In this document: positions 46,449 to 56,651 of the stretch, piece after piece | How the letters are laid out: every line of letters begins with the position of its first letter | Position numbering within the stretch: the first letter of the stretch is position 1 | NCBI GenBank assembly: GCA_965204735.1 | Contig: OZ242008.1 | Location: forward strand, 1,696,001 to 1,760,000 | Length of the DNA: 64,000 bases | Reading direction: 5' to 3' | Origin: Longimicrobiales bacterium | GTDB lineage: Bacteria > Gemmatimonadota > Gemmatimonadetes > Longimicrobiales > Gaopeijiaceae | Made by a program: the position numbers and the translations under genes | Notes under the pieces: model-generated | The model's database searches: none | What the model was told of the DNA's origin: nothing | What the model saw: the letters and a program-made list of their open reading frames with translations, nothing else

Positions 46449-46913
46449 TCAGCCGGGTTGCGAGGCAATCGTCGCCCGGCGCTGGAGTGCCCGTATCACA
46501 TGAGGCATCGCGAGAAGCCTCAGGTAGCGGTCGTTGGCGTGATTCTGGATGACGAGACCGTTCTCCCATCGCCCAATGGTTGCCTCGCCAAGGCCGGTGA
46601 CGTGGGCGAAGGCGGCCCTCGTCATGCCGTATCCGCGTCGGATCGACCGAATGTCGGCGGGCGACAACACGCCTAGGTGCCGACAGATCGCTTCGTGGCG
46701 GAGCCGTTCGCCGTGCTGGTCGATGTACTGGAGGTCGCAGGCCGCACACGTGCGGACGGGCACGTACACGGGAATCCGAGACTTGAGGTCGCCGGATCCC
46801 CACGTCATCACGTCGTCGACCCATCGGGTGACGACTTCTTCGCCGTCGCACTGGGGACAGGGATCGGCGACGGTGGCGGCCGAGCCACGGGGCGCTGGCG
46901 CGGTGGATTCCAT
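46449..46913 (-). CDS. MqsA-family antitoxin-like protein (Zn ribbon + Cro/XRE HTH)
   Basis: CPQC...CAAC, then IRSIRRGYGMTRAAFAHVTGLGEATIGRWENG. Confidence 0.85.
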   Translation of the reverse strand: MESTAPAPRGSAATVADPCPQCDGEEVVTRWVDDVMTWGSGDLKSRIPVYVPVRTCAACDLQYIDQHGERLRHEAICRHLGVLSPADIRSIRRGYGMTRAAFAHVTGLGEATIGRWENGLVIQNHANDRYLRLLAMPHVIRALQRRATIASQPG

Positions 46914-47023
46914 GATTCGTCTATCACTCCGTCTGGCCAGCACGGCCAACTGATGCCGGGTGGCGGCGTCGATTCCCAACAGTTCGGGTCAAGGGCCGAG
47001 TGGATGGCTCCCGCCCGCCGCGC

Positions 47024-48704: not shown

Positions 48705-49232
48705 CTACGGAGCCTGCTGCCTCCGCATCACCAGGTGCTCCCCGGCTCCGTCCAGGGTCAGCAGCGCCACGTCGCCCGATGCGAGGTTGATCTCGCCGTG
48801 CCAGACGTAGCCGGTCGGGACGCCGCCCGGGGTCTCCGCGTCTTCGGCCAGCACGGCTTCGAAGCGCACCGACAGCGCTACCACTCCGGCCTCCGCGGAC
48901 AGGTCGCGGAGGACATGGACGGGTCGGTCGCCTCGCATCCCCTTCGGGAAGAGGGTGTCGCGGACGACGGGCCGGCCGTCGACGGCCACATCCAAGGCGA
49001 AGGGCGCCAAGGCCCGCGTGCACTCCCGGGGGCTCCGCATGTGGACGGGAAGGGTTGCCAGCTCCTCGTCGGTGCGAGTTCGGCACGCCTCGACGGGCAC
49101 GCCCGCAACTCGCCACGACAGTCGGACGATCGGGTCGTCGGCGCCGAAGTCCATCGGCGCGCGGGACAGCCATGCGACGCCGCCGGTCATCGCAATGGCC
49201 AGGAGGGCGGCCCCGGCTCGCCTAGCGGTCAA
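48705..49232 (-). CDS. Membrane-anchored hypothetical protein, translationally coupled to the cytochrome b fusion
   Basis: TTG overlaps the upstream TGA. N-terminal TM; CRTRTDEELATLPVHMRSPREC. Confidence 0.7.
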   Translation of the reverse strand: MTARRAGAALLAIAMTGGVAWLSRAPMDFGADDPIVRLSWRVAGVPVEACRTRTDEELATLPVHMRSPRECTRALAPFALDVAVDGRPVVRDTLFPKGMRGDRPVHVLRDLSAEAGVVALSVRFEAVLAEDAETPGGVPTGYVWHGEINLASGDVALLTLDGAGEHLVMRRQQAP

Positions 49233-51088
49233 GACGCGGCTCCGTCGGCTTCGCACTCCGCACCCACCTCGAACTGCCGTTCCGCCCGCGCGGCGTCCAT
49301 CGCCCGCACGCTCGACCAGAACCGCGCCACCCTGTCCCGCAGCACCCTGGCCTCGCCCGCCCCGGCGTAGACCACGTCGATCCGGCGGCGGTCCACCCGC
49401 TCCTGGAGCTCGGCTTCGCGCCCGTTGTGGACGCGCTCGTCGAACCACTTGACGCCTTCGCGGCTTCGGCAGTCCCTCGGAGGGCAAGCTGCCACGAGCA
49501 CGCCTCCGGCACCGGCCCGGACCAGGTACTCGATCACGGAGGTGTGAAGGCTGCCCACGCATCCCACGGGGAAGATCCGCGCCGCGGGGACGGCCGCGGA
49601 CGCAGCCGATCCGGCGGGTCCGTCGACGTCGGCGAGTCCCAGCGGGCGGAGCGACTCCAGCGAGCCGACCGACCCTGCCGCTCCGTGCATGCATCCCACG
49701 ATCACCACGTCGCTGGGACCGGGCCGCGCCTCGGCCAGGAACTCCCGCGTTCGGGCCAGCTGGTCCCGCCCCGTCCGTCCGTCGGGCCCCACGCCCATGG
49801 GCGCGCACGACCCTGCGCAGACGCCGCAGCTCACGCACTTGGCCGTATCCACCCAGCCGACCAAGCCGTCGCGTCCGTCGTCCCGTTCCACCATGGAGAT
49901 GGCTTCGTAGGGACAGTCCTGGAAGCACTGCTCGCAACCGGTGCAGTGGCGCGGGTTCACCCACGAAGGCGAGGGCGCCTTCTCCGCCCGCGGCTTGGTC
50001 AGGAACGGAACCAGAAGGGCCGCTGCGACGATCGATCCGCCCGCGACCCAGACCCAGCCGGCCGCCATGGTCCGGGTCGCAGGCAACCAGAACCCGTAGA
50101 CCCAGTCGGCAGGCACGACCGAGGGAAGCTTCAGCAAGTCCGCCTTCGGGCCCAGCGGAGGCGGCCACGCCACGGCTGCAATGGCCAGGCAGCCGACCGC
50201 GCCCCACAATAGCCGCTTGGGCGGAAGCAGCTGCGCTCGCGCCAGCCGCGACACGTGCACCCAGAGAAAGAGGGCGATCCCCACGGGCGCCGCGATGTGG
50301 GCGAACAAGTTCATGAAGAAGAACGCGTCCGGCAGGGGCGCCTCGCCGGTGAACGCCCGGCCCAGGGGCTCGGAGAAGACGGGCAGCGCGTCCAGGATGC
50401 GGGCGCCCTCGGCGGCGAGAACTTGGCCGTGGACGTCCCACGCCATGACGTAGCCGGTCCAGCCGCAGACGAAGAGGATGCCCAGGAGCACGCCCCCCGA
50501 CACCCATGCCAGCGCCCGCGGACCCCAGGTGCGGCGCTGGGCGAACATCCGAAAGCCGTGGAGGACCGCCGCCACGACCGCCAGGGCGGACGCGTAGCGA
50601 TGCATCCCCCGAATCCACCGCCCGCCCCACCACTGCGCGTCGATCGCCGCCACCGACTCGTGGGGCGCGCCGATCCGGTAGAAGAGGAGCAGATACGCCC
50701 CCGTCGCCAGGAGGACGCCGAAGCAAGCCACCACCAGCGCGCCCGAGTGGTAGAGCGGGTTGAAGCGCCAGGTGTACAGCGCGTTGAACGCGGCGTCGAG
50801 ACGGGCGAGCGCTCGGAGGCCGGGGTTCGCGGCAGCCGGGGAGCTGCCCGAAGCCTGAGGGCCGCCCGCCGGTGGGTGGTTGCTCGCCGCCCGGGAGCCG
50901 CCCTCCGGTGGGTGGTCGCCCGCCGCCCGGGAGCCGCCCGGCGGTGGGTGGTCGCCCGCCGCCTGAGAGCGGTCCCCCGCCTGAACGCCGCCGGCCGCCT
51001 GATAATCGCTCGCCGCCAAGCGGGACGCGGCCTCCCGCCCGGATCGCCCGCCACGCTTCCCACCTTGCCCCTCCCCAGCAATATTCAT
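49229..51088 (-). CDS. Fusion: cytochrome b(b6)-like domain + 2x[4Fe-4S] ferredoxin + MvhD/FlpD-like Fe-S domain
   Basis: Two His pairs spaced 14 apart (MHRY..VLHG; AHIA..VHVS), TGYVMAWD, PADWVY; CTGCEQCFQDCP and CVSCGVCAGSC; VGC / GCVGS / ACPPRDC. Confidence 0.85.
   Translation of the reverse strand: MNIAGEGQGGKRGGRSGREAASRLAASDYQAAGGVQAGDRSQAAGDHPPPGGSRAAGDHPPEGGSRAASNHPPAGGPQASGSSPAAANPGLRALARLDAAFNALYTWRFNPLYHSGALVVACFGVLLATGAYLLLFYRIGAPHESVAAIDAQWWGGRWIRGMHRYASALAVVAAVLHGFRMFAQRRTWGPRALAWVSGGVLLGILFVCGWTGYVMAWDVHGQVLAAEGARILDALPVFSEPLGRAFTGEAPLPDAFFFMNLFAHIAAPVGIALFLWVHVSRLARAQLLPPKRLLWGAVGCLAIAAVAWPPPLGPKADLLKLPSVVPADWVYGFWLPATRTMAAGWVWVAGGSIVAAALLVPFLTKPRAEKAPSPSWVNPRHCTGCEQCFQDCPYEAISMVERDDGRDGLVGWVDTAKCVSCGVCAGSCAPMGVGPDGRTGRDQLARTREFLAEARPGPSDVVIVGCMHGAAGSVGSLESLRPLGLADVDGPAGSAASAAVPAARIFPVGCVGSLHTSVIEYLVRAGAGGVLVAACPPRDCRSREGVKWFDERVHNGREAELQERVDRRRIDVVYAGAGEARVLRDRVARFWSSVRAMDAARAERQFEVGAECEADGAAS
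50861..50965 (-). repeat. 36-bp tandem repeat (~3 copies) in the N-terminal extension of the cytochrome b fusion
   Basis: AAGDHPPPGGSR / AAGDHPPEGGSR / AASNHPPAGG. Confidence 0.8.
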
Positions 51089-51100
51089 ATCATCATGATA
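51088..51100. promoter_or_regulatory. AT-rich inverted repeat between divergent operons; candidate Rrf2 operator
   Basis: TATCAT-C-ATGATA. Confidence 0.5.
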
Positions 51101-51126
51101 ATAGGACGAATGCCGCAGGCAACCCC

Positions 51127-51567
51127 GTGATCCTCTCCCAGACCGCCGTGTACGCCCTTCGAGCGATGCTTCACTTGGCCGAGCGCCCCGACGACCAGCC
51201 GGTGCCGGTGGGCGACGTCGCGGCCGCGCTGGACGTTCCGCGCAACTACCTGTCCAAGATCCTCCACGTCCTTGCCCGGCGCGGCCTGCTCCGGTCCGTC
51301 CGTGGACCCGGCGGCGGATTCAGCCTCGCCCGTCCGCCCAGCCGAACGACGCTGCTGGAGGTGGCCGCCCACTTCGACGACATGGACCGCGAGCGCTGCC
51401 TGCTGGGCCGCCCCGAGTGCCGGGACGACGATCCGTGCCCGGCCCACGGCCAATGGAAGGAAGTCGCCGCCGCCCTGCACGCCTTCTTCCGCAACACCAC
51501 CATCGCCGACCTCGCCCGCGGCGCGACGAAGACTCGCCCGCGCCACCAACAGGAGGCCGACTCGTGA
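51127..51567 (+). CDS. Rrf2 family Fe-S transcriptional regulator
   Basis: YALRAMLHLA, YLSKIL, SVRGPGGGFSLAR, C-x6-C-x5-C-x2-H. Confidence 0.92.
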   Translation: MILSQTAVYALRAMLHLAERPDDQPVPVGDVAAALDVPRNYLSKILHVLARRGLLRSVRGPGGGFSLARPPSRTTLLEVAAHFDDMDRERCLLGRPECRDDDPCPAHGQWKEVAAALHAFFRNTTIADLARGATKTRPRHQQEADS

Positions 51568-51743
51568 CCGACCACGACGACACTGGCGCAAAGGCGCCGG
51601 ACCCCGCCGACGTTCCCTTCCTCCAGCGGCTCTACGACCGGCCCTTCCTGCTGCTGGCGCTGGGCTTGGCCGTCATGCTGATCCTCTTCACCGGCTGGGG
51701 GCTGTGGGAGGTGCTGACGCTCCCCGAAGCCACCCTGCCGTAA
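51564..51743 (+). CDS. Small single-TM subunit (subunit IIa-like) of the heme-copper enzyme
   Basis: AGGAGG RBS, GTGA coupling; QRLYDRPFLLLALG..TGWGLWE. Confidence 0.7.
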   Translation: MTDHDDTGAKAPDPADVPFLQRLYDRPFLLLALGLAVMLILFTGWGLWEVLTLPEATLP

Positions 51744-51756
51744 GGAGCTGGCGCAG

Positions 51757-52347
51757 ATGTACCAAACGGGAATGACCCCGCCGCAAGGCGTCTGGTGGAA
51801 GCCGGCGCACAAGTCCGAGAAGGTCTGGGCCACGGTGGCCTTCGTCTGGTGCATGGTGCTCTTCGCCATGATGCCGGTCTGGCACCTTCGCGGAGGCCAG
51901 AACCCCTCCGGAATCCGCGCCAAGGTGGATCCGACCGCCTTCCAGGCCAGGGTCCAGGAGTTCATCCGCGACTACCAGGTGGGCACCGACAACGGCTTTC
52001 CGGTCGTGGCGCCGCCGCCGGGCAGCGACGTGTACATGATCGGCCAGATGTGGGCGTGGCTGCCGGTGCTTCAGCTCGAGAAGGACGTCGAGTACACTCT
52101 GCACCTCTCGTCGCTGGACGTGAACCACGGCTTCAACCTGTATCCGTTCAACGTCAACTTTCAGGTGGTTCCAGGATACGACTACGGACTGCGCATCGTG
52201 CCGACCGAGGCCGGCGAGTACGGCGTGGTCTGCAACGAGTTCTGCGGCGTCGGCCATCACTTGATGGTGGGGAAGGTGATCGTCACCGACTCGGAGACGA
52301 ACGTCGCCTCCCGACCGGCCGCCGGGGCGGAAGGCGGCGCCAGATGA
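51757..52347 (+). CDS. Heme-copper oxidoreductase subunit II (single TM, CuA)
   Basis: DVNHGF and the CuA motif CNEFCGVGHHLM. Confidence 0.93.
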   Translation: MYQTGMTPPQGVWWKPAHKSEKVWATVAFVWCMVLFAMMPVWHLRGGQNPSGIRAKVDPTAFQARVQEFIRDYQVGTDNGFPVVAPPPGSDVYMIGQMWAWLPVLQLEKDVEYTLHLSSLDVNHGFNLYPFNVNFQVVPGYDYGLRIVPTEAGEYGVVCNEFCGVGHHLMVGKVIVTDSETNVASRPAAGAEGGAR

Positions 52348-54062
52348 ACCCGTTTCGCAAGTGTCCGACCACCGGGCTGAGCGTGCACAAGGACGCCGAC
52401 GCCCTGATCAAGGCCAACGCGGTGGCAGCCACGGTGGCGCTGCTGATCGGCGGCGTCACGGCGGTGCTCGTGCTGCTGACCCGGTGGCAGGCCGTTCATC
52501 TCCTGAGCGACGTGTGGTTCTACCGCATCCTCACCGTCCACGGGATGAACATGCTGATCTTCTTCATCCTGTTCTTCGAGATGGCGGTCCTCTACTTCGC
52601 GTCCGCCGTGCTGCTCAACTCCCGCGTGGCCGCGCCGAAGACGGGGTGGGTCGCGTTCGCTCTCATGCTGGCGGGCGCCGCAATGGTGGAGTGGGCCATG
52701 TTCACGGGCAGGGCGGACGTCCTGTTCACCTCCTACGTGCCCCTGAAGGCGCATTGGAGCTTCTACCTGGGCGTGATCCTCTTCGCCGTGGGCGCAATCT
52801 TCGTGACCACGATCTTCTTCGCGACCCTGGTGGTCGCCAAGCGGGAGAAGACGTATTCGGGGTCGGTGCCCCTGGTGACCTTCGGGGCGATGACGGCGGC
52901 GATCATCGCGGCGATCACGCTCCTCCACGGCGCGGCGATCTACATCCCCACCTTCCTCTGGTCGCTGGGCCTCATGGAGGTGGACCCGCAGGTGTACCGA
53001 CTGGTCTGGTGGGGGCTGGGCCACTCGTCGCAACAGATCAACGTCGCCGCCATGGTGGCGATCTGGTACCTGCTGGGCGGGCTCACCGTCGGCGCCGTGG
53101 TGGTGAACGAGAAGATCAGCCGCACGGCCTTCGTCCTGTACATCCTGTTCATTTCCATGGCGTCGGCGCACCACCTGCTGGTGGACCCGGGGTTCGGCCC
53201 GTCGTGGAAGATCGTGAACACGTCGTACTTCATGTACATGGCGGTGCTGGCGTCGATGCTCCACGGCTTCACCGTGCCGGCGGGCGTCGAGCTGGGGATG
53301 CGCCTTCGGGGCTTCACGCAAGGGTTGTTCGGCTGGCTTCGGCGCGCGCCCTGGCACGACCCGGGCTTCTCGGCGCTGTGCCTCTCCGTCGTGGTGTTCG
53401 GATTCGTGGGCGGAATCACGGGCGTGACCTTCGGCACCGAGCAGATCAACATCATCGCGCACAACACCTTGCGAATTCCCGGCCACTTCCACGCGACCGT
53501 CGTCAGCGGCACCGCGATGGCCTTCATGGGCGTCACCTACTACGTGATTCCGCTGATCTTCCGGAAGAAGATCGCCTTCTACGGCTTGGCGAAGTGGCAG
53601 CCGTGGGTGTTCAGCGCCGGAATGCTCGTGTTCTCTATGGCGATGACCTTCGCCGGAACCTTCGGCGTTCCGCGCAGGCACTGGGACGTCACCTTCTCCG
53701 GCGCGCCCTTCGGCGTCGAGTACTCCGCCGCCGTGGACTTGCTGTTCGCGGTCATGGCTGCCGGAGGGCTGGTCGCGGCAGTGGGCGGCGCCATGTACAT
53801 CGTGGTCACCGTGTCGTCGGTGTTCTTCGGCAAGCCGCTGGGCGACGAAACGACGGAGTCGGCCCTTGCGGGCGCCGTGCCGCCCGGTCTCTACACGCGC
53901 CCGTTCACGGAGCTTCCCGCCCGGACGCCGAAGCTGAAGGAACACGGCAAGCTGGGGACGATGCCGGGCACGATGATCCTCGTCGGCGTGTTCCTGCTCG
54001 CCTTCGTCGTCTACTACTTCGCCAACTGGAAGCTCCTGTCGGCGATGTGGCAGATCGGGTGA
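52344..54062 (+). CDS. Heme-copper superfamily subunit I, B-family-derived; probable eNOR-type nitric oxide reductase
   Basis: All six His ligands present (TVHG, GH, SAHH, GHFH). Helix VI reads GHSSQQIN rather than GHPxVY. Confidence 0.8.
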   Translation: MNPFRKCPTTGLSVHKDADALIKANAVAATVALLIGGVTAVLVLLTRWQAVHLLSDVWFYRILTVHGMNMLIFFILFFEMAVLYFASAVLLNSRVAAPKTGWVAFALMLAGAAMVEWAMFTGRADVLFTSYVPLKAHWSFYLGVILFAVGAIFVTTIFFATLVVAKREKTYSGSVPLVTFGAMTAAIIAAITLLHGAAIYIPTFLWSLGLMEVDPQVYRLVWWGLGHSSQQINVAAMVAIWYLLGGLTVGAVVVNEKISRTAFVLYILFISMASAHHLLVDPGFGPSWKIVNTSYFMYMAVLASMLHGFTVPAGVELGMRLRGFTQGLFGWLRRAPWHDPGFSALCLSVVVFGFVGGITGVTFGTEQINIIAHNTLRIPGHFHATVVSGTAMAFMGVTYYVIPLIFRKKIAFYGLAKWQPWVFSAGMLVFSMAMTFAGTFGVPRRHWDVTFSGAPFGVEYSAAVDLLFAVMAAGGLVAAVGGAMYIVVTVSSVFFGKPLGDETTESALAGAVPPGLYTRPFTELPARTPKLKEHGKLGTMPGTMILVGVFLLAFVVYYFANWKLLSAMWQIG

Positions 54063-55045
54063 CGGCGGAACTCGGGCCTCGCGGGGCGCCGAAGATCCTC
54101 CGACCCCAGGACAGATGGCCCGTCGGGGCGGCCGCGTTCATCCTGGCCGTTTCCGCCGCGTGGTGGGGATTCGCGCTCTTCGCGGTTCCCGGCGCCCCCG
54201 AGTGGCTCGACCGCGCCCGCGCCGTCTGCTTCAACGTCGACGAGAGCGGCCTGCCCGACGCGAAGGGCTGGCTGCTGCTGATCGGACAGCCGCCGGCGAT
54301 GCTGCTGGCGCTGTACGCTGGGTGGAGCGGCCAAGTGCGCGACACTTGCCGCCACCTTGTCCGCTCTCCCGCCCGACGACGCCTGATCGTGGGCGCAGGT
54401 CTGGCGGTTGCGGCCTTTCTGGCGACCGCCGCGGCCCAGGTGGCCAGCCTTCGCCTCCCGCCCCCGGCGCTGGCGGCCGGCTTCGGAGCGACCGGCGACG
54501 AACTCCTGCCCGAGACCTACCCCCGCCTCGACCGCCCGTGGCCCGGGACCGAAGGGCTGGTGGACCAGCGCGGCGCCGCCTTCTCGCTGGAGAGCCTCGA
54601 AGGCCGACCGGCGTTCGTCACCTTCGCGTTCGGCCACTGCGCCACGATCTGCCCCATCGTGGTGCGCAACTCGCTGGAAGCGCGGCGGTCCGTGGCGTCC
54701 CAGCGGGATGCCGATGTCGAGACGGCGGTCGTGGTGTTCACGCTGGACCCTTGGCGCGACACGCCCAGCCGCTTGCCGGTCCTTGCGGAGCGCTATGGGC
54801 TCGACCCCGCGCGGGACTTCTTGGTCGGCGGCGCCCCGGAAGCCGTGACGCCCGTGTTGGACGCTTTCGCCATGGCCCACCAGCGCGACCCCCGAACCGG
54901 CGACGTCGTTCACCCGCCGCTGGTCTACGTGGCGGAGAGCGACGGGACGTTGGCCTACGCATCCACGGGCGCGACGGTCCATCTTGTGCAGCTGGCGGGC
55001 AGGACCGCCGGCCGAACGAACGACGCGACCCCGATAGGCCGCTGA
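54059..55045 (+). CDS. SCO/SenC copper chaperone with N-terminal 3-TM domain
   Basis: FGHCATICP (CxxxC), LDPWRDTP, VVHPP. Confidence 0.88.
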   Translation: MTAELGPRGAPKILRPQDRWPVGAAAFILAVSAAWWGFALFAVPGAPEWLDRARAVCFNVDESGLPDAKGWLLLIGQPPAMLLALYAGWSGQVRDTCRHLVRSPARRRLIVGAGLAVAAFLATAAAQVASLRLPPPALAAGFGATGDELLPETYPRLDRPWPGTEGLVDQRGAAFSLESLEGRPAFVTFAFGHCATICPIVVRNSLEARRSVASQRDADVETAVVVFTLDPWRDTPSRLPVLAERYGLDPARDFLVGGAPEAVTPVLDAFAMAHQRDPRTGDVVHPPLVYVAESDGTLAYASTGATVHLVQLAGRTAGRTNDATPIGR

Positions 55046-55072: not shown

Positions 55073-55924
55073 ATGAGGGTCGTCACGTGGAACGTCGACC
55101 GGGCCACTTACTGCAAGAACACCCAGCTCTCGGCGGCAAAGTGGAAGGCGTTCCTGCGGATGTCGGCCGACATCGCCATGCTCCAGGAAGTCTACAACAT
55201 CCCGCAGTGCGTTCGCGACCGCTACCACGTCAAGTACGTGAAAGTACGCTACTTCACAGGAGGCTGCGCCAAGTTCGGGACCGCTGTGCTCGCCAGGAAG
55301 CCCGATTGGAAGATCGGGGCAGAAGCGACGTGGAGCTCGGAGCACGACTGGGTCAACCGGATCCAGCAAACGTTCCCCGGCTGGCTGGTCGGGCGTCAAG
55401 TCGAGAGCGCTTCGGGCGACCGCTGCACGGCCGTGTCAGTACATGCGCTGGCTGTTCCGGTTGAGCGCCGGGAAGGAACTCACGCGCTCTGCGAGATACT
55501 GGACGGCGTCGACGTCGCTCCTGTCAAGCTGCAAAACAACCCGACGCTGTGGTTCACGGAAATACTGTGGTCGCTGCTCAAGGGAGCCAAGATAGACAAA
55601 GCCGCGAGCTGGATCGTTGCCGGCGACTTCAACAGTTCCATACTGTTCGACAAGCCCAAGAACCGAGGCAACGGCGAGATCGTCGAAAGGCTCAACGCCT
55701 TGGGGCTCTTCGACTGCGTCGTCGAGCGCCATGGAGAGCGCAAGCCCACATATCGCGCCAAGACCCATCCGCACCTGGTGCCGGTCCATCAACTGGACTA
55801 CGTGTACGCGAACGCACCGTTGCTCGACCGCCTGACCGACGTCGCGGTGGGAGGAGACCTGCCGGCAGGGGAGAAGGGGCTCAGCGATCACCTTCCCGTC
55901 GTGTGCGACTTCGGAGACGCCTGA
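55073..55924 (+). CDS. Endonuclease/exonuclease/phosphatase family protein
   Basis: VVTWNV, LQEV, AGDFNS, LDYVY, SDHLPV. Confidence 0.9.
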   Translation: MRVVTWNVDRATYCKNTQLSAAKWKAFLRMSADIAMLQEVYNIPQCVRDRYHVKYVKVRYFTGGCAKFGTAVLARKPDWKIGAEATWSSEHDWVNRIQQTFPGWLVGRQVESASGDRCTAVSVHALAVPVERREGTHALCEILDGVDVAPVKLQNNPTLWFTEILWSLLKGAKIDKAASWIVAGDFNSSILFDKPKNRGNGEIVERLNALGLFDCVVERHGERKPTYRAKTHPHLVPVHQLDYVYANAPLLDRLTDVAVGGDLPAGEKGLSDHLPVVCDFGDA

Positions 55925-56147: not shown

Positions 56148-56651
56148 ATGAACATGAAGAAGATGGCGGCCGCCGGCCTGCTGGCGACGGGGGTCGCGGT
56201 GGTGCTGGTCGCCGGAAGCAGGTCCACGGACGAGGGGGCGGCGAGCTACTCGGCCCAGCCAGCGGCCGCCGGCGACGGTCCTGCGGTCCACGTCTACAAG
56301 ACGGCGACGTGCGGGTGCTGCGCGAAGTGGGTCGACCACCTGCGGGAGGCCGGCTTCGCCGTGACGGTCGAGGACACGAGGGAGTTGATGGCCGTCAAGC
56401 GGCGCGAGGGAGTCCCGACGGACCTCAGCTCGTGCCACACGGCGCTGGTGAACGGCTACGTCGTGGAGGGACACGTGCCCGCGTCGGTGGTCCACGCCTT
56501 CCTGGAGGAGGCCCCTGAAGCGCGGGGCCTCGCAGTCCCTGGAATGCCGATCGGATCGCCGGGGATGGAGGGCCGGCACGCGGAAGCCTACGACGTGTTC
56601 GCCTTCGACGCGGACGGCGAGCGGACCGTCTTCCGCCACGTCGAGCCGTAG
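56148..56651 (+). CDS. DUF411 (CopG-like) exported metal-binding protein
   Basis: TCGCCAKW, SCHTA, EGHVP, VPGMPIGSPGME. Confidence 0.9.
   Translation: MNMKKMAAAGLLATGVAVVLVAGSRSTDEGAASYSAQPAAAGDGPAVHVYKTATCGCCAKWVDHLREAGFAVTVEDTRELMAVKRREGVPTDLSSCHTALVNGYVVEGHVPASVVHAFLEEAPEARGLAVPGMPIGSPGMEGRHAEAYDVFAFDADGERTVFRHVEP

Follow-up and report, generated by a model that had tools for sequence, protein, structure and literature searches.

The nitric-oxide reductase eNOR was described by Murali et al. in 2024 (PMC11214002), who, in the part of the text available to us, assayed its activity with TMPD/ascorbate and named CtaA as the usual companion in eNOR operons. The same portion mentions no cytochrome b partner, although one may be shown in the figures of gene surroundings in R. 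marinus and Magnetospirillum. Cytochromes b fused to 4Fe-4S and MvhD-type domains, with no Rieske gene nearby, were named the ‘PDWF-FeS’ clade by Kao and Hunte in 2014 (PMC4122944). The examples given there, Magnetospirillum AMB-1, Turneriella parva and Alicycliphilus, are all eNOR bearers in PMC11214002, and the accessible sections of the 2014 paper give no function, eNOR link or outer domain for the clade. Becker et al. (10.64898/2026.01.22.701106) likewise report cytochrome b and Fe-S genes, together with sco1, in the eNOR operon of Ferrigenium; the proteins were found in the proteome, and the “rather unusual” genes were proposed as Ferrigenium markers.

Here we analyse a locus in a 64,000-nucleotide stretch of a Longimicrobiales genome, hereafter the window, that combines an eNOR-type enzyme with such a protein. 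The term ‘wire’ denotes the cytochrome b/Fe-S fusion plus its outer domain, in whichever split or fused form they occur. To call this system undescribed, as the original prediction did, is too strong: judging by the available parts of these sources, the architecture was named in 2014 (PMC4122944) and its pairing with eNOR was reported for one genus in 2026 (10.64898/2026.01.22.701106).

Layout of the locus and identity of the enzyme

All seven genes are intact, and the start codons of the two arms lie 38 bp apart, which bears out the predicted divergent operons and their gene content. The features are as follows.

48705..49232, minus strand: outer half of the split wire, 175 aa; one TM helix (residues 2–24) and a β-sandwich, predicted periplasmic
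49229..51088, minus strand: fusion of di-heme cytochrome b, two [4Fe-4S] and an MvhD/FlpD-type [2Fe-2S] domain, 619 aa (Pfam)
50861..50970: 36-bp tandem repeat, 3.1 copies, in the stretch that extends the fusion at its N-terminus and is not conserved
51065..51122: two face-to-face σ70-like promoters, TTGCCC-17-TATCAT rightward and TTGCCT-16-TATCAT leftward
51083..51100: TCAT-N6-ATGA inverted repeat that may be the Rrf2 operator and whose arms overlap both −10 boxes
51127..51567, plus strand: rrf2 regulator with IscR-type ligand set
51564..51743, plus strand: single-TM small subunit, probably subunit IIa-like, judging by its position
51757..52347, plus strand: eNOR subunit II with CuA ligands (Dataset S1 of PMC11214002)
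52344..54062, plus strand: eNOR subunit I with GHSSQQ motif; best PDB match T. thermophilus ba3
54059..55045, plus strand: SCO copper chaperone (Cys194, Cys198, His285) that carries an additional membrane domain at its N-terminus

The fusion and outer-half genes are joined by a TTGA overlap on the minus strand. Three of the right-arm junctions are overlaps (GTGA, ATGA and GTGA), and at the remaining one 13 bp separate the genes. Related loci also have the small TM gene ahead of subunit II, and the encoded protein matches no Pfam or NCBIfam family. As predicted, neither a Rieske nor a cytochrome c gene was found here: a genome-wide search returned four Rieske matches, all outside the window, and no CxxCH open reading frame occurs in a filtered, non-exhaustive set from the window.

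In subunit I, Gln231 replaces the cross-linked Tyr, as mapped through an alignment with ba3 (Y237 in ba3, Q245 in R. marinus). The K-channel residues Tyr242, Ser304 and His307 are present, with Glu21 of subunit II at the entry (reference Y256, S318, H321 and E-II-21), as are all six heme/metal histidines (His66, 227, 276, 277, 381 and 383) and the CuA ligands of subunit II (His124, Cys159, Glu161, Cys163, His167 and Met170). The Gln for Tyr exchange, the K-channel Tyr/Ser/His, the subunit II Glu and CuA are common to this enzyme and to eNOR as characterised in the accessible text of PMC11214002. All 19 PDB matches of subunit I are ba3-type or related subunits I, and sequences with GHxxQQ form one group against the B-family in a quick IQ-TREE tree (32 of 75 rows), in line with the derivation of eNOR from B-family oxidases. 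Subunit I shares 53% identity with a Defluviimonas plasmid copy. Heme As, FeB and reduction of NO to N2O, but not of O2, are further hallmarks of the eNOR family, and a CtaA gene lies elsewhere in the genome. Judged by its residues, the right arm is an eNOR, as originally proposed, with every diagnostic position that sequence can test.

Architecture and distribution of the wire

The Cytochrome_B, two Fer4 and FlpD domains of the fusion exceed the Pfam cut-offs, which upholds the predicted cytochrome b/ferredoxin/MvhD composition; the first ~90 residues do not belong to it, being a non-conserved extension, and the alignment with distant homologs begins near residue 90. Among 130 representatives, the heme ligands His163, 177, 264 and 278 and the eight ferredoxin cysteines are kept in 98–100%, and the MvhD-domain cysteines in 98% (Cys466, 510 and 535) and 82% (Cys540). 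The AF2 model (pLDDT 93) contains cytochrome b helices A–F, helices E–F included, in a full b6+subunit IV-like fold whose best structural matches are bc1/b6f cytochromes b. The fold, four heme histidines and a Qo-like Asp are thus shared with bc1 and b6f, whereas the locus has no Rieske or c1/f gene and the six TM helices are followed by Fe-S domains predicted to be cytoplasmic. The Qo motif reads ADWVY here rather than PDWF, and across the family the motif is a variable D-[WLVF]-F-[YF], with Asp (Asp328 in the fusion) in 93% of the representatives. Residues 354–600 resemble the ferredoxin plus MvhD module (HdrA2, QmoB-like) at the C-terminal end of HdrA2, with E = 1.7e-17 and a score well under the cut-off; in contrast to HdrA systems, no HdrA flavin domain, HdrBC or hydrogenase is encoded at the locus. 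The whole genome contains a single FlpD match.

The product of 48705–49232 has no Pfam or NCBIfam match. In 96 of 103 long homologs it is fused C-terminally to the cytochrome b protein, so the left arm is, by comparison with these homologs, one protein divided over two genes. Its AF2 model (pLDDT 94) is a β-sandwich with a protruding Cys50...[H/N]-Met65-Arg...Cys71 loop. A fold search with this domain returned generic β-sandwiches only (best Z = 6.8, r.m.s.d. = 3.7, 94 aligned residues), Foldseek gave nothing at E ≤ 0.001, and the ESM Atlas gave unnamed clusters. Met65 is kept in 106 of 113 homologs and at 64 of 68 distant loci; the Cys pair is absent at 12 of the 68. A Cys2-His-Met copper site was considered and rejected, as position 64 is Asn instead of His at 43 of these 68 loci. 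With this topology, six TM helices would leave all three Fe-S clusters on the cytoplasmic side, and a seventh would take the Met-loop domain back to the periplasm.

In 510 genomes from three phyla, a sample without Proteobacteria or Chloroflexota, 95 encode both eNOR and the wire, five eNOR only and one the wire only, its eNOR being cut by a contig end. This agrees with the dedicated partnership originally proposed, for which comparison with other oxidases had been suggested as a check; an A-family subunit I occurs at none of 80 distant loci, an outcome in favour of the partnership. The module is a genuine operon for an eNOR-type nitric-oxide reductase, co-inherited with an unstudied membrane protein. 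Against the proposal of Ferrigenium markers, the wire accompanies 95 of 100 eNORs in three other phyla, and in contrast to the Ferrigenium operon the window locus has no FAD/NAD paralog, heme o synthase or scaffold gene. Cultured, harmless hosts carry the wire, and it is a good marker for separating eNOR from misannotated oxidases.

Possible roles of the wire

The wire probably carries electrons outward, either to install or maintain the copper centre of eNOR or to feed the enzyme directly; as companion in about 95% of sampled eNOR genomes, it is the obvious candidate for an eNOR donor or assembly factor. Judged by gene context, the SCO/CuA assembly branch is at least as well indicated as catalytic donation, and we tentatively favour, with somewhat less than even confidence, a supply of reductant for the assembly or upkeep of CuA over bulk donation. 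Cytoplasmic electrons of low potential would come from ferredoxin, or from an NAD(P)H flavoprotein that docks at the MvhD domain, and pass from the Fe-S clusters through heme bH and heme bL to the outer side of the membrane. Their most likely acceptor there would be the copper-assembly branch (SCO dithiol or Cu(II)), which would build or re-reduce CuA. A tie of the inner end to NAD(P)H is suggested by a paralog (locus L112) with the same cytochrome b but with Fer2, FAD and NAD domains.

Of the 61 distant metagenome loci that extend far enough upstream, 58 have SCO directly before the wire, and neither SCO nor the outer domain is found at any of the six eNOR loci without the wire, which argues for an assembly role. 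So does the Defluviimonas plasmid, where the order II-I-cyoE-SCO-wire-outer domain-hemerythrin sets the wire behind maturation genes. A further locus (L165) adds to this: the operon of its wire homolog includes two SCO genes, a Tyr-type B-family oxygen reductase and a cytochrome c of its own, and the wire is therefore not strictly NO-specific. Canonical quinol:cytochrome c oxidoreductases are encoded in the host genome: a cytochrome b-diheme c fusion has a Rieske gene immediately in front of it, and a cluster of six genes resembles alternative complex III; one of the four Rieske matches belongs with a cytochrome b other than that of the wire. The original argument for a non-canonical donor is thus not supported, and bulk turnover would run via cytochrome c from these complexes. 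Consistent with an assembly role, eNOR purified from R. marinus, which may lack the wire, showed two bands, subunits I and II, according to the figure legend (PMC11214002).

The task of the wire would then be low in flux, as with CcoG-type accessory ferredoxins. As cited in PMC8267372, CcoG is a [4Fe-4S] membrane protein and cupric reductase that serves heme-copper enzyme assembly. The wire may be its functional analogue, with two hemes and an MvhD domain added; no CcoG/FixG family appears among the Pfam matches or the best 25 of 39 NCBIfam matches. Accessory membrane ferredoxins of the NosR/NapGH type are further functional analogues.

Several observations weaken the assembly reading. The six wire-less loci form one group (support 84, long branches) and may reflect a single event; a nested secondary loss, as placed by a FastTree tree, is not borne out by the quick IQ-TREE tree (32 of 75 rows), which leaves the deep order open. 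In the window, SCO and the wire belong to different arms, a copper site is not universal in the outer domain, and no cytoplasmic donor gene is present at the locus. Helices E–F and the Qo-like Asp also suggest quinone chemistry, for which a maturation role would have no need.

Retention of this Asp and of the full b6+subunit IV-like fold speaks instead for a catalytic donor, a less probable but serious contender in which the wire replaces bc1 and cytochrome c and passes quinol or cytoplasmic Fe-S electrons to CuA at each turnover. The near one-to-one co-occurrence favours it too, as do the placement of the outer domain on the CuA side of the membrane, a cytochrome c gene near the wire-less Thermus locus, and a mirror-tree correlation between wire and eNOR of 0.87 (64 pairs), a value that shared descent alone can produce. 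The canonical donors of the host and the two-subunit R. marinus preparation count against it, and adjacency and co-absence of the wire are with SCO. Moreover, electrons moving outward from cytoplasmic donors would dissipate membrane potential.

Electrons in bc complexes run from the outer to the inner heme, a direction that would suit Rieske-less quinol bifurcation or reverse electron transfer, with one electron passing to eNOR and the other inward to Fe-S and ferredoxin/NAD+. We consider this unlikely. The wire does retain its Qo-like motif along with every heme and Fe-S ligand, and the FAD/NAD paralog occurs beside eNOR, but the outer domain has no conserved high-potential cofactor site and the locus no flavin domain. 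Becker et al. made this proposal for Ferrigenium on the basis of proximity (10.64898/2026.01.22.701106). Equally doubtful is a Rieske-free quinol oxidase, whose Met loop would replace the Rieske head and hand an electron to eNOR, the NO/N2O couple driving the second inward to ferredoxin/NAD+; if true, most eNOR bearers would have a complex III of a new kind, one coupled to NO reduction.

That the wire feeds some other part of maturation, be it heme As synthesis, FeB loading or re-reduction, or serves as a redox sensor seems quite improbable: cyoE, hemerythrin and a degenerate subunit I-like gene occur at 36, 27 and 13 of 80 distant loci, but all three are absent from the window locus, CtaA is located elsewhere, and the wire-less Thermomicrobium locus retains heme o synthase.

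Nitric oxide supply and regulation

No match over cut-off for nirK, nirS or nosZ was found in the host genome, and in this host the module would for this reason act as a sink for NO from outside. Nitrite reductase matches are missing in half of the Gemmatimonadota carriers, so the module may often remove NO that other organisms produce, releasing N2O.

The two σ70-like promoters are the only ones in 6.9 kb, where shuffled sequences give an expectation of 0.2, and both lie in the spacer and are conserved across nine aligned spacers. The leftward promoter ends 6 nt before the fusion ATG, and its transcript is therefore probably leaderless. The TCAT-N6-ATGA repeat has a single match in the genome and is found at 21 of 28 loci with rrf2 and none of nine without it.

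The best PDB match of the Rrf2 protein is IscR, and its ligands Cys91, Cys98, Cys104 and His107 are invariant in 33 of 33 homologs. This Cys3-His set is that of IscR, as opposed to the three Cys and Asp8 of NsrR (PMC5411485). The protein does not reach the IscR equivalog (77.8 bits against a cut-off of 207.55), and its context is eNOR rather than isc/suf. An NsrR identity was rejected, with Ala/Val at positions 7–8 of this protein, no Asp there in the 33 tallied homologs, and a score of 48 bits against a cut-off of 182. The IscR-type ligands, facing promoters and a repeat that tracks rrf2 lend support, at the level of sequence, to the predicted co-regulation by an Fe-S sensor, and both arms would probably be de-repressed together once the Rrf2 cluster is damaged.

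Gene layout and the right-arm enzyme

All seven genes of the module are intact in the window, which bears out the divergent layout of the original prediction:

49229-51088, minus strand: cytochrome b/Fe-S fusion, 619 aa, with Cytochrome_B, Fer4 and FlpD matches above cut-off
48705-49232, minus strand: outer-domain protein, 175 aa, no family matches
Plus strand, in this order: rrf2, a single-TM gene, subunit II, subunit I and SCO

Adjacent genes of the module overlap by 4 bases at four junctions, and the nearest named relatives are Longimicrobiales (Gemmatimonadota) MAGs. The fusion begins with an extension of ~90 residues that lacks conservation and contains a 36-bp repeat, and the N-terminal membrane domain of SCO (window 54059-54450) has a conserved RxRxxCF motif. 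Two flanking genes, for an endonuclease/exonuclease/phosphatase (window 55073-55924) and a DUF411 CxxC metal-binding protein (window 56148-56651), do not adjoin the module in 20 related loci. An antitoxin-type gene, MqsA-like zinc-finger/HTH by weak Pfam matches, lies at window 46449-46979 (minus strand).

The best match of subunit I is T. thermophilus ba3, and its diagnostic residues were placed through the ba3 alignment onto Dataset S1 from the eNOR study by Murali et al. 2024 (PMC11214002). Gln231 replaces the cross-linked Tyr; Tyr242, Ser304 and His307, as well as Glu21 of subunit II, are present, and the six His of subunit I and the CuA ligands of subunit II are all retained. Judged by these residues, the enzyme is an eNOR, the nitric-oxide reductase type that had been proposed.

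The module is real and highly conserved; its enzyme belongs to a known family, and its accessory, of proposed function, had been noticed in part. The original description as an undescribed system goes too far: the eNOR family and the architecture of the cytochrome b/Fe-S fusion are known (PMC11214002 and PMC4122944, in the parts available). The two left-arm genes together are here called the wire. Kao and Hunte 2014 (PMC4122944) named this architecture ‘PDWF-FeS’, with no function attached in the accessible text. The available portion of Becker et al. 2026 (bioRxiv) places cytochrome b/Fe-S genes, detected in the proteome, in the Ferrigenium eNOR operon and proposes a quinol:NAD+ supercomplex. 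Related literature, also available in part, comprises the Murali et al. 2021 preprint, PMC8756737, PMC4013037, PMC8267372, PMC13592168 and PMC10734462. The literature searched, with few subscription papers, yielded neither a functional study of the wire nor a description of its pairing with eNOR across phyla, although supplementary neighbourhood figures may show this pairing. New here are the coupling to SCO, the palindrome linked to Rrf2, the variability of the outer-loop His, the exception with a Tyr oxidase and the finding that the host has canonical donors.

The left-arm protein

Homologs of the wire were taken as 150 representatives of 50%-identity clusters among the matches listed, of 2270 at E ≤ 0.001. 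Since 96 of the 103 listed representatives with at least 620 residues carry the 175-aa domain at their C-terminus, the two left-arm genes are, by homology, one protein split in two. Among the 130 listed representatives of at least 480 residues, conservation is 98-100% for the four heme His and the eight ferredoxin Cys, 98% for three of the MvhD Cys and 82% for the fourth, and the Qo-like Asp328 is kept in 93%. The AF2 model of the fusion (pLDDT 93) matches bc1/b6f cytochromes b, and its six long helices would correspond to helices A-F. By analogy with these cytochromes, the Fe-S domains would be cytoplasmic, and the last helix would place the β-sandwich outside. Systems with which the wire was compared include NosR, NapGH and QmoB.

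The outer domain has a confident fold (pLDDT 94), for which structure searches returned generic sandwiches only and no specific relative. The feature that stays constant in it is a Met in a loop (106/113 homologs; 64/68 distant loci). A universal copper site was ruled out: among the 68 distant loci, 43 have Asn in place of the His before this Met, and only 56 have the Cys pair.

Pairing with eNOR

Subunit I occurs in 70 of 301 Gemmatimonadota genomes, the wire in 67 and both in 66; in Methylomirabilota (121 genomes) the counts are 15 and 14, all 14 common to both, and in the phylum of genome G308 (88 genomes) both occur in the same 15, with the caveat that related genomes are not independent and E-value thresholds differ between searches. 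The single wire-only Gemmatimonadota genome has a subunit I truncated at a contig end, and the four eNOR-only genomes carry the distant GHG[TS]QQ type. With the window's wire as query, 18 of 20 loci had subunit I in view; one of the other two genomes has it on another contig, and it was not found in the last, a small genome (1.7 Mb).

For distant homologs, an alignment of 20 representatives served as query against metagenomes; of the 548 stretches confirmed, the best 80 were used. Subunit I is of GHxSQQ type in 40 of these 80 and cut in 8; 19 show accessory genes only and one a Tyr-type B-family oxidase; 12 are empty (upstream ≤2.1 kb) and none has an A-family subunit I beside the wire, so that the predicted co-occurrence with eNOR over other oxidases was upheld. 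Where at least 4.3 kb lies upstream, 31 of 33 of these loci have eNOR. A Defluviimonas plasmid carries the entire set in a single direction; the plasmid eNORs of Thermus and Thermomicrobium are without wire. Six long-branched eNORs of GHG[ATS]QQ type (loci L065-L068, L086, L087) lack the wire and outer domain, and one has Lys at the position of low-spin heme His383.

The Tyr-type exception (L165:4586-11467) is an operon of rrf2, two SCO genes, subunit II, subunit I (GHPLVY), cytochrome c and a wire homolog; the latter, adjoining an oxygen reductase, sits on a long branch of the wire tree. A degenerate subunit I-like gene (WGxGH[VI]LQ, ~25% identity) adjoins eNOR in 13 of the best 80 of 548 distant loci (L089:5034-6524, L108:12251-13630 and 11 others) and is absent from the window's locus; it probably corresponds to what Becker et al., in the available text, call the ‘eNOR scaffold protein’. 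In proteobacterial-type operons a hemerythrin-family gene often follows the outer-domain gene (L085:17517-17921; 27 of the same 80 loci). In a relative (G059), an operon for a ba3-type Tyr oxidase converges on the eNOR operon (L074:13493-15820).

Electron acceptor, host context and regulation

The wire would move electrons outward across the membrane, since its low-potential clusters lie inside and a paralog bears FAD/NAD domains. This paralog (L112:4371-6356) joins the same cytochrome b to Fer2, FAD and NAD domains and diverges from an eNOR operon that also carries the wire; paralog and wire could conceivably form a heterodimer.

We tentatively favour the SCO/CuA branch as acceptor because SCO lies immediately upstream of the wire in 58 of the 61 distant loci with at least 900 bases upstream (among the best 80 of 548), is missing too from all six wire-less eNOR loci, and is present twice with the oxygen reductase of L165, an enzyme that has its own cytochrome c. 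However, the six wire-less loci may represent one event, the Qo-like Asp is retained, and in the window SCO sits on the opposite arm. Catalytic donation by the wire to eNOR is possible and somewhat less probable. The need for a non-canonical donor, as originally argued, was not supported: the host genome (98% complete) makes canonical donors available, encoding a cytochrome b-diheme cytochrome c fusion with a Rieske gene upstream (C1:925294-927735) and a six-gene cluster resembling alternative complex III (3585999-3593607). It also encodes an A-family oxidase with cytochrome c, and CtaA. Electron bifurcation or reverse transfer through the wire is improbable, and other maturation roles are more improbable still.

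The host genome gave no match at cut-off for nirK, nirS or nosZ. Among Gemmatimonadota, nirK is above cut-off in 14/67 carriers vs 19/234 non-carriers, with any nirK-like match in 28/67 carriers and nirS in 6 of 66 tested; since 33 of 67 carriers have neither gene, NO would often not be self-made. The unpublished genome G155 contributes one count to these numbers.

Two sigma70-like promoters face each other in the spacer, the only two in 6.9 kb (0.2 expected), and the -10 boxes of both overlap an inverted repeat that occurs once in the whole host genome. The repeat tracks rrf2: it occurs in 21 of the 28 loci that have the gene (the L020 match is probably chance) and in none of nine without it, though five of these retain the divergent layout. 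This tracking suggests a candidate Rrf2 operator; it could also be merely two -10 boxes. NsrR uses Asp8 as a ligand, which is missing from the window's Rrf2, and the ligand set is that of IscR (PMC5411485, in the part available) in 33/33 homologs; an NsrR identity was rejected. The predicted co-regulation by an Fe-S-type Rrf2 gains support from these promoter, repeat and ligand patterns. The rrf2 gene is lineage-specific, occurring in 4 of the best 80 of 548 distant loci.
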